From the sequence record LC494302.1: a stretch of 64,000 bases of DNA; one strand, given 5' to 3'. The DNA comes from Escherichia phage SP27. Below the pieces are notes generated by a model. That model saw nothing but the letters and a program-made list of their open reading frames with translations, was not told the DNA's origin and made no database searches. Below are positions 41,396 through 41,474 of the stretch, piece after piece; the stretch's first letter is position 1, and each line of letters opens with the position of its first letter. Both the position numbers and the translations under genes were made by a program.

Positions 41396-41474
41396 CCGGG
41401 CGTATCTCAACGGTCTTCTAAATCGTCGTTAATCGAGTAACTGGAGTATGCAGGTTCGAGTCCTGTCGCCTGGG
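41396..41474 (+). tRNA. atypical tRNA-like element (possible degenerate tRNA; CTTCTAA hairpin suggests Arg-TCT ancestry)
   Basis: Good acceptor stem CCGGGCG/CGCCTGG, T-arm GCAGG-TTCGAGT-CCTGT, encoded CCA; but no D-arm can be folded and the only anticodon-like hairpin (ACGGT CTTCTAA ATCGT) sits 12 nt too early. Confidence 0.35.

Follow-up and report, generated by a model that had tools for sequence, protein, structure and literature searches.

Escherichia phage SP27 (sequence record LC494302.1) carries a transfer RNA (tRNA)-like element directly downstream of a canonical tRNA-Ser(UGA) gene, and this element is the subject of the present analysis. The stretch of DNA analysed, referred to here as the window, comprises 64,000 nucleotides (nt) of Asteriusvirus-type jumbo coliphage DNA; within it, the region of the element is 99.8% identical to phage PBECO4 and approximately 93% identical to phage 121Q. 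The element lies on the + strand and is numbered from nt 1 (window position 41396) to nt 79 (41474), and its parts and immediate neighbours are listed in Table 1. The adjoining tRNA-Ser is probably its upstream partner in a dimeric precursor. The promoter-like site that precedes both genes is a consensus match only, of a kind no more numerous in this region than in shuffled sequence, and is likely to be the start of a common Ser and Arg transcription unit.

Table 1. Parts of the tRNA-like element of phage SP27 and the features immediately upstream (window coordinates).
Feature	Position	Strand	Sequence	Basis or remark
Promoter-like site	41264–41291	+	GGGACA, 16-nt spacer, TATAAT, TG extended −10	approximately 10 nt before tRNA-Ser
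Canonical tRNA-Ser(UGA)	41302–41391	+		ARAGORN; Rfam 60.1 bits; encoded CCA ends at 41391
Spacer from tRNA-Ser CCA to element, 4 nt	41392–41395	+	AAAU	sequence
Acceptor stem, 5′ strand (nt 1–7)	41396–41402	+	CCGGGCG	pairs with 41467–41473
U8-A9-U10	41403–41405	+	UAU	invariant in 73-sequence alignment
C11-U12-C13, 5′ strand of new 3-bp helix (putative D-stem equivalent)	41406–41408	+	CUC	covariation
A14	41409	+	A	between C11-U12-C13 and anticodon stem
Anticodon arm	41410–41426	+	stem ACGGU/AUCGU, loop CUUCUAA	5/5 stem pairs covary
Anticodon (Arg; AGA/AGG)	41417–41419	+	UCU	sequence
Bulge, 8 nt, from anticodon stem to 3′ strand of new helix	41427–41434	+	CGUUAAUC	conserved, including CGUUAA
G40-A41-G42, 3′ strand of new helix	41435–41437	+	GAG	covariation
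D-loop-like motif U43-A44-A45-C46-U47-G48-G49-A50	41438–41445	+	UAACUGGA	UAAYUGG kept in all subfamilies
Connector G51-U52-A53-U54 to T stem	41446–41449	+	GUAU	invariant (73 sequences)
T-arm with canonical T-loop	41450–41466	+	GCAGG/UUCGAGU/CCUGU	U60, U61, C62 and A64 invariant
Acceptor stem, 3′ strand	41467–41473	+	CGCCUGG	pairs with 41396–41402
Discriminator	41474	+	G	sequence
Encoded CCA	41475–41477	+	CCA	sequence

An initial annotation of this locus, made from the sequence alone, described a clean acceptor stem, a T-arm and an encoded CCA, all of which are present; the acceptor stem forms 7 base pairs (bp), including one G-U pair. The annotation also held that no normal D-arm could be folded, and only 7 nt are available between the acceptor and anticodon stems. 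The single good hairpin that it had recognised, with anticodon UCU, was confirmed. In canonical tRNA numbering, the loop of this hairpin is a textbook anticodon loop, in which C32 and U33 precede the UCU triplet and A37 and A38 follow it, thus providing both U33 and a purine at position 37. As had also been noticed, the anticodon stem is shared with the neighbouring tRNA-Ser, whose own stem is likewise ACGGU/ACCGU.

Gene-finding programs do not recover a cloverleaf from this sequence. ARAGORN made no call on the element in its default, metazoan-mitochondrial (-mt, -mtmam) or -ps modes, and when relaxed further (-ps90/-ps80) it returned only a nonsense 'tRNA-Asp(atc)' fold with mismatched stems. 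The Rfam tRNA model RF00005 scored the element at 29.3 bits, a marginal pass against a gathering score of 29, with 15 D-arm positions deleted and 20 nt inserted in the variable region of the alignment. Ten sister sequences checked with the same model scored 30.1–34.4 bits, and several sister sequences fell below the threshold. ARAGORN calls only 4 of approximately 100 family members, each of them wrongly folded: these four 'tRNA-Arg(tct)' calls assemble a false acceptor stem and D-arm from upstream sequence. The initial annotation had allowed that a covariance search might reveal a standard tRNA fold that it had missed; no such fold emerged.

Relatives of the element are widespread among phages. 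A BLAST search of the 91-nt element region against 50,697 phage records, with a cut-off of at least 80% coverage, identified 242 isolate phage records. The carriers include Asteriusvirus, Felixounavirus (mio, radambza, ST11), Vequintavirinae (BIS47, KNP2, A73), Stephanstirmvirinae (phi92, PATM), the T5-like Klebsiella phage Roth37, Salmonella phage 7t3 and Streptomyces phage Yaboi. These groups share no other nucleotide similarity and infect both proteobacterial and actinobacterial hosts, and the unpaired motifs of the element are nearly invariant throughout. In GenBank the gene is unannotated, lies under a 'hypothetical protein' or is labelled tRNA-Leu(taa), -TERM, -Undet, -OTHER or -Val. The labels Leu(taa) (121Q) and TERM (7t3) were considered and rejected, as they require a non-pairing anticodon stem, and the base used in that anticodon varies without consequence. 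Three pattern scans of IMG/VR, with different parts of the sequence fixed in each, added approximately 90 contigs. The element is almost always on the same strand as adjacent tRNA genes and frequently lies within tRNA clusters. In cellular genomes it is scarce: a scan of 185,579 bacterial and archaeal species, each represented by a single genome, yielded 6 matches, all on metagenome-assembled genome (MAG) contigs and one of them (L109) a chance match, and the element was found in none of 5,426 complete E. coli genomes scanned. This scarcity indicates that the element is phage-specific.

De-duplication left 73 distinct full-length sequences, which formed the alignment for covariation analysis. 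With the proposed structure, 94.3% of cells were paired compared with 64.2% in shuffles, and the covariation score was 0.776 compared with 0.193, a value reached by none of 500 shuffles. Sliding the 3′ partners by 1–3 columns reduced pairing to 33–46%. The acceptor helix (1–7:72–78) covaries at all seven pairs, with 99.2% of cells paired, the anticodon stem (15–19:27–31) at all five, and the T stem (55–59:67–71) at four of five, with 98.9% of cells paired. Beyond these three long stems, the alignment supports a new 3-bp helix, 11–13:40–42, which spans the anticodon arm. Pair 12:41 is UA in 43 sequences, GC in 16, AU in 12 and CG in 2, and pair 13:40 is CG in 59, GC in 7 and UA in 7; neither is ever unpaired. 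Pair 11:42 is CG in all 73. Positions 12, 13, 40, 41 and 42 were fixed by no search pattern, and C11 was free in the first scan.

Conservation is also strong outside the helices. Loop positions U21, C23 and A25 are invariant in the 73 sequences, as are the equivalents of U54, U55, C56 and A58 in the T-loop, which follows the canonical U54-U55-C56-R57-A58 pattern. Bulge positions C32, U34, A36 and A37 (element numbering) are invariant too, although two of the three scan patterns had specified TTAA; in other subfamilies the bulge is 3–8 nt long and frequently reads NGNAA. The discriminator is G or A in 67 of the 73.

Two alternative pairings of the central region were compared. Pairing of C11-U12-C13 with the second GAG (49–51; 41444–41446) was rejected, as it leaves 12:50 unpaired in 30 of the 73 sequences. 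A variable-arm hairpin GUUA/UAAC at 33–36/43–46, or the corresponding pseudoknot 34–36:43–45, is unsupported: no pair is changed on both sides, and the hairpin is broken at 33:46 in 13 of 68 cells (5 gapped) and at 35:44 in 4 of 73. A 20-member sister subfamily has a second helix, in which nt 8–11 pair with the four bases after GGA and covary perfectly (pair 11:51 is CG in 13, UA in 4, AU in 2 and UG in 1; pair 10:52 is GC in 13 and AU in 7). In the subfamily of the window, U8-A9-U10 may similarly pair with G51-U52-A53 (41446–41448), both segments being invariant.

A family covariance model, R1, was built from the 73 relatives. R1 matched the window element over its full length with 93.8 bits (E 9e-27), far above chance expectation, the element being itself part of the training alignment. 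The other 72 members scored 85–102 bits. Canonical tRNAs reached at most 32 bits, and those of the window no more than 17.3 bits.

The comparative data bear directly on two readings in which the element would be an ordinary tRNA, hidden or broken. That it is a canonical tRNA seen in the wrong fold, and normal after unrecognised splicing or editing, is hardly credible. The idea draws on general possibility alone; tRNA genes that are circularly permuted or interrupted by introns are reported from other systems (PMC3978253, PMC3728597). In the element, both acceptor halves keep the normal order, deletion of any contiguous segment restores no D hairpin, covariation supports the unspliced fold, and an Rfam search matched no group I intron or other Rfam family to the element.

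A decaying pseudogene, either a broken canonical tRNA-Arg with its D-arm deleted and junk inserted or a partial duplicate of tRNA-Ser, is likewise extremely improbable. The marginal Rfam score, the failure and disagreement of standard finders, the assorted GenBank labels and the anticodon stem shared with tRNA-Ser all point that way, and the initial annotation had listed a degenerate duplicate among its possibilities. That suggestion does not survive comparison with an old and widespread family in which every helix shows compensatory change (19 of 21 pairs among the 73 distinct sequences) and the unpaired motifs are nearly invariant across unrelated phage families. Duplication from the neighbouring gene was also rejected: ACGGU is simply the commonest stem of the family, and relatives have ACGAG, CCUGA, GCGGU and others. 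As far as sequence analysis can go, the pseudogene reading appears already refuted by the comparative data.

R1 also found intermediate-scoring relatives with the same layout and other bulge or linker lengths, one with anticodon ACG and one with UAU. Only GTAAYTGG, the T-arm and CCA served as anchors in a fourth IMG/VR scan, which excluded the linker length of the window and yielded at least 98 distinct sequences. Among the matches listed, 94 had the same layout, 3 were false positives and 1 was too short to parse. The layout of this wider class runs from the acceptor through UAN(N), a 2–3-bp strand, 0–3 nt, the anticodon arm, a bulge, the complementary strand, UAAYUGG... and a linker to the T-arm. 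Its short helix covaries (CUC/GAG, CGG/CCG, CGC/GCG, CCG/CGG, CAG/CUG, CGA/UCG, CCU/AGG). Among the matches listed, the bulge is 3–8 nt in nearly all members and 14 nt in L118, and the linker generally ends in AU before the T stem (most rows; not tabulated).

The anticodons of the wider class are predominantly those of arginine: among the matches listed, ACG occurred 41 times, UCU 34 times, UCG 7 times and CCU 4 times. The non-arginine anticodons were UAU (Ile; 4), GAU (Ile; 2), CAU (Met/Ile; 1) and UAC (Val; 1). Within the 73-member subfamily of the window, 71 have UCU, one has UCG and one has CCU.

The bacterial arginine identity set comprises A20, C35, U/G36 and A/G73, of which A20 is the strongest determinant for the E. 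coli arginyl-tRNA synthetase (ArgRS) (PMC9976931). All 159 arginine members (86 among the matches listed and the 73 of the window subfamily) have an NCU or NCG anticodon, and therefore C35 with U or G at position 36; the discriminator of the element, G 41474, falls within A/G73. In each of the 159, the base after the GG of UAAYUGG is A, a position left free by the search for at least 129 of them and for at least 43 of the 73 in the window subfamily. In all eight non-arginine members among the matches listed, this base is U and the discriminator is A73 (L065 5506–5582, L162, L157, L224, L153, L173, L137 and L179, with UGGU for UGGA). A73 belongs to the Ile, Val and Met identity sets, and U20 to the Ile set (PMC9976931).

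The conserved motif downstream of the new helix, A44-A45-Y46-U47-G48-G49-A50, has the sequence of canonical A14-R15-Y16-Y17-G18-G19-A20, which makes up the 5′ half of a D-loop, and A50 (41445) follows G48-G49 as A20 follows G18-G19. Canonical phage tRNA-Arg genes in the same loci carry AGUUGGAUA at the place of the D-loop motif. From this resemblance, together with a perfect but phylogenetically non-independent correlation with identity, we infer that the segment would be a working D-loop, relocated 3′ of the anticodon arm. Of the possibilities raised in the initial annotation, a 'D-armless tRNA' comes closest and is incomplete: the D hairpin is missing, but the element has a 3-bp helix resembling a D-stem and an AAYUGGA motif resembling a D-loop, with the strand order altered.

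The following scheme is proposed for the element. It would be co-transcribed with tRNA-Ser(UGA), and RNase P would free its 5′ end after the 4-nt spacer, the CCA being already encoded. In the folded RNA, the anticodon arm would sit inside the would-be D-loop or, equivalently, the D-stem strands would occur in swapped order: C11-U12-C13 and A14 would stand where the 3′ strand of the D-stem and nt 26 normally are, and G40-A41-G42 where the 5′ strand of the D-stem is. The elbow would form by contact of G48-G49 with the T-loop (pseudouridine (Ψ) 55/C56), A44 and A45 would act as A14 and R15, and U54 would be the Y48 equivalent and Levitt partner of A45. A50, as the A20 equivalent, would be read by the host ArgRS along with C35, U36 and G73.

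Such re-threading can be considered in terms of the normal tRNA fold. In a canonical tRNA the acceptor is followed by the 5′ strand of the D-stem, the D-loop, the 3′ strand of the D-stem and nt 26, and then by the anticodon arm, the variable loop and the T-arm. In three dimensions, the D/anticodon stack brings nt 44/45 next to nt 10, U8 and A9 sit on top of the D-stem, and nt 46–48 adjoin the 3′ portion of the D-loop. As these segments are already spatial neighbours, re-threading could retain the core and the L-shape. An L-shape of normal dimensions is plausible, because the stacked 3-bp helix and anticodon stem would be approximately as long as the normal D-stem/anticodon-stem stack.

Gene content at the carrier loci suggests what the RNA is used for. 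Ten Asteriusvirus genomes (UE-S1, slurp01, G17, Sharanji, JP4 and others) have a canonical 77-nt tRNA-Arg(UCU) at exactly the position of the element, with the same flanks up to the gene borders. There is no overlap between these ten and the 23 Asteriusvirus genomes listed as carriers of the rewired form. Given the same slot and mutual exclusion, the canonical and rewired forms behave as alleles in Asteriusvirus. In at least 10 loci with 22–26 tRNA genes (Felix-like and others), Arg(ACG) is present, canonical Arg(UCU) is absent and the rewired gene fills the slot. The rewired UCG member lies in a cluster with a canonical UCU gene, and the rewired CCU member adjoins a second, rewired UCU copy. 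In the long open reading frames (ORFs) of the window, AGA accounts for 25% of arginine codons, or 10.0 per 1000 codons. AGA is rare in E. coli and is read by a scarce tRNA. The charged RNA would supply AGA decoding that the phage needs and the host provides poorly.

The position of the element also invites a reading as processing punctuation only, in which the acceptor/T-arm module would be an RNase P/RNase Z site that parts tRNA-Ser from the downstream small-ORF mRNA and the remainder would have no function. The element does lie between a tRNA and ORFs, with no terminator-like site between them. This explanation is nonetheless very unlikely, since the anticodon arm, 3-bp helix, bulge and D-loop-like motif are conserved or covarying and would be unneeded for processing, and the genomic contexts vary widely among phage groups.

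A tRNA mimic that acts as a decoy or inhibitor is a more substantial alternative, although still an unlikely one. The RNA would occupy a host factor, for instance an anticodon nuclease or some other defence enzyme directed at tRNA, shield host or phage tRNA-Arg and stay off the ribosome. An architecture restricted to phages and strongly biased to a single amino acid is consistent with this role, as is its coexistence with canonical tRNA-Arg(UCU) in two loci (L037 and L060, described below); phage tRNAs are also known to counter tRNA-cleaving defences (PMC10264068; papers on OLD and Schlafen). A decoy for one enzyme, however, needs neither four arginine anticodons that complement the canonical set of the phage nor Ile, Val and Met versions in which the A20 equivalent and the discriminator switch in step with synthetase identity rules. 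In Asteriusvirus, moreover, the rewired form replaces the canonical gene instead of joining it, and the element retains, intact, the acceptor stem, CCA and T-loop that EF-Tu and the ribosome require. The suggestion in the initial annotation of a tRNA-like processing or decoy element therefore fits poorly with both the aminoacylation-identity pattern and the allelic exchange with canonical tRNA-Arg(UCU).

Taken together, the comparative evidence indicates that the element is probably a functional, topologically rewired tRNA-Arg(UCU) that belongs to a large phage-specific class and decodes AGA and, probably, AGG. Several observations weigh against this interpretation. Both the D-loop mapping and the elbow contact are deduced from sequence resemblance and a correlation. 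Several of the 'invariant' positions were set by the search patterns themselves, and the sequences are akin, so that the counts overstate the number of independent events. The fold of the single sequence is no more stable than those of shuffles (z = −0.38), and RNAalifold alone recovers the three long stems only and does not predict the 3-bp helix. The interpretation does not account for the strong bias of the class towards arginine. Finally, L037 (1522–1598 and 1614–1692) and L060 (4106–4178 and 1865–1943) each hold both a canonical and a rewired tRNA-Arg(UCU), which in L037 are adjacent. This coexistence implies that the two forms are not strictly interchangeable, and the rewired form may offer something extra to, or different from, the canonical one.

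A broader proposal, for which the case is evenly balanced, is that the class constitutes an undescribed natural tRNA architecture, with the anticodon arm nested in the D region, that is charged by ordinary ArgRS, used by ordinary ribosomes and spread through many unrelated phage lineages, mostly for arginine and occasionally for Ile, Val or Met. A possible reason for its existence would be that the altered core is invisible to host enzymes that recognise or cleave canonical tRNAs. Phage tRNAs are known to stand in for host tRNAs that defence nucleases have cut, and for this reason nuclease escape is an attractive candidate explanation of the unusual core. It is speculation that phages favour the architecture because it evades host nucleases directed at tRNA or does away with a need for D-arm modification.

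Other features of the window lie near the element. Directly 3′ of it are two tandem 54-codon ORFs (41503–41667 and 41664–41828), both of which start with MTHEEWM and which overlap by ATGA; the annotation of 121Q has three consecutive 165-nt ORFs of the MTHEEWM kind. Near-consensus sigma-70-like promoters (11–12 of 12 matches) occur on the + strand across the tRNA/small-ORF region at 41839–41866, 42318–42346, 43089–43117 and 44249–44276, and the site at 43089–43117 directly precedes a tRNA-Ser(ACU)/Met/Asn group. The tRNA-Ser of this group (43128–43219) has anticodon ACU in the loop CUACUAA; an A at position 34 is uncommon except in tRNAs that form inosine. Of the serine codons, AGT is used most often in the long ORFs of the window (24.1 per 1000). 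ARAGORN predicts a tRNA-Gly(UCC) at 40200–40272, which has a poor-looking D-arm region and no Rfam tRNA match at the gathering threshold.

Further observations concern related loci. An HNH endonuclease gene begins 10–18 nt 3′ of the rewired tRNA in mio (L005 1595–1942) and in Roth37 (L006 1592–2101), which belong to unrelated phage groups; the endonuclease gene may have served to spread the nearly identical rewired tRNA gene horizontally. Roth37 has a second gene labelled 'tRNA-OTHER' (L006 114–198), which lies outside the rewired family. The MAG contig L106 has two copies (1458–1540 and 2103–2179); the T-arm of one is interrupted after GGGAG and the other is an intact short-bulge variant. Other RNA genes in related phage tRNA clusters include a CyVA-1 RNA (L065 5901–5979), a permuted transfer-messenger RNA (L199 3405–3727) and a group I intron (L021 6333–6624). 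The CyVA-1 RNA (RF02965, 52 bits), from one such cluster, was considered and is an unrelated motif.

If the rewired RNAs are charged and decode, the cloverleaf is not the sole fold accepted by bacterial ArgRS, EF-Tu, RNase P and the ribosome, and the class would show, as an experiment of nature, how much of the tRNA core is truly required. The question is directly testable, as carriers include easily grown phages of E. coli and Salmonella (PBECO4/121Q group, Felix O1 group, phi92, rV5-like). Phage annotations miss these genes or mislabel them, as Leu, 'TERM', Undet, OTHER, Val or hypothetical protein, and consequently tRNA repertoires and codon-usage arguments are wrong for arginine in many phage genomes. 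Designers of orthogonal tRNAs could be interested in a compact scaffold whose core differs, and if the rewiring resists tRNA-targeting defence nucleases, it would represent counter-defence of a new type.

The architecture appears to be a newly seen variant of tRNA. A 2020 review of natural non-canonical tRNAs contains no phage case or similar architecture (PMC7609411), and full-text search of the searchable literature found no description of it, although literature beyond that may exist; a match to the motif sequence in a paper on PaP1 proved to be a chance match in a promoter table. A 2023 catalogue of viral structured RNAs includes an IMG/VR motif, DNAVirus_2961, that 'only sometimes' overlaps ARAGORN tRNA-Arg calls and is interpreted no further there than as 'tRNA or tRNA-like' (PMC10690425). 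Partial recognition by ARAGORN is common to that motif and the rewired family, and the two may be the same.

The closest relative is canonical phage tRNA-Arg(UCU), as found in the UE-S1 allele (L001 492–568) and T5-like phages. It occupies the same slot after tRNA-Ser(UGA) and has the CUUCUAA-type loop, the same type of T-arm, the GGA motif, a G/A discriminator and an encoded CCA; the 3′ 36 nt of the element are approximately 92% identical to T5-group tRNA-Arg. The canonical gene has a D hairpin (stem 10–13/22–25) and a 5-nt variable loop, whereas the element has no D hairpin, a 3-bp helix that spans the anticodon arm and its GGA 3′ of that arm.

D-armless metazoan mitochondrial tRNAs, such as tRNA-Ser(AGY/UCU), also lack a D hairpin, extend the anticodon helix towards the acceptor/T junction and in some cases have the anticodon UCU (PMC7609411). 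These tRNAs are approximately 55–65 nt long, lack G18-G19/T-loop elbow contacts, have degenerate T-loops and work with co-evolved synthetases and EF-Tu (PMC7609411). The element, in contrast, is 79 nt long, has a canonical T-loop, a GG(A) motif and a covarying 3-bp helix, and must work with the ordinary bacterial apparatus; it differs from the mitochondrial type, which is short and has an unstructured connector and lost D-loop/T-loop contacts, in each of these respects.

Type II tRNAs (Ser, Leu and bacterial Tyr) resemble the element in having approximately 20 extra nt between the anticodon and T stems. They keep the D-arm and a self-contained extra hairpin, whereas the element has no D-arm, its candidate hairpin 33–36/43–46 shows no covariation and part of this region pairs with nt 11–13. 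The 8/5 or 9/4 tRNA-Sec, tRNA-Pyl and allo-tRNAs depart from the 7/5 cloverleaf and are nevertheless charged and used (PMC7609411). They alter helix length or loop size and keep the order of elements, whereas the rewired class alters the strand order of the D region. Rearranged tRNA segments within a gene are also known from the circularly permuted tRNA genes of Cyanidioschyzon merolae, in which processing restores a canonical mature tRNA (PMC3978253). In the phage element, the acceptor halves are in their normal places and the rearrangement would persist in the mature RNA.

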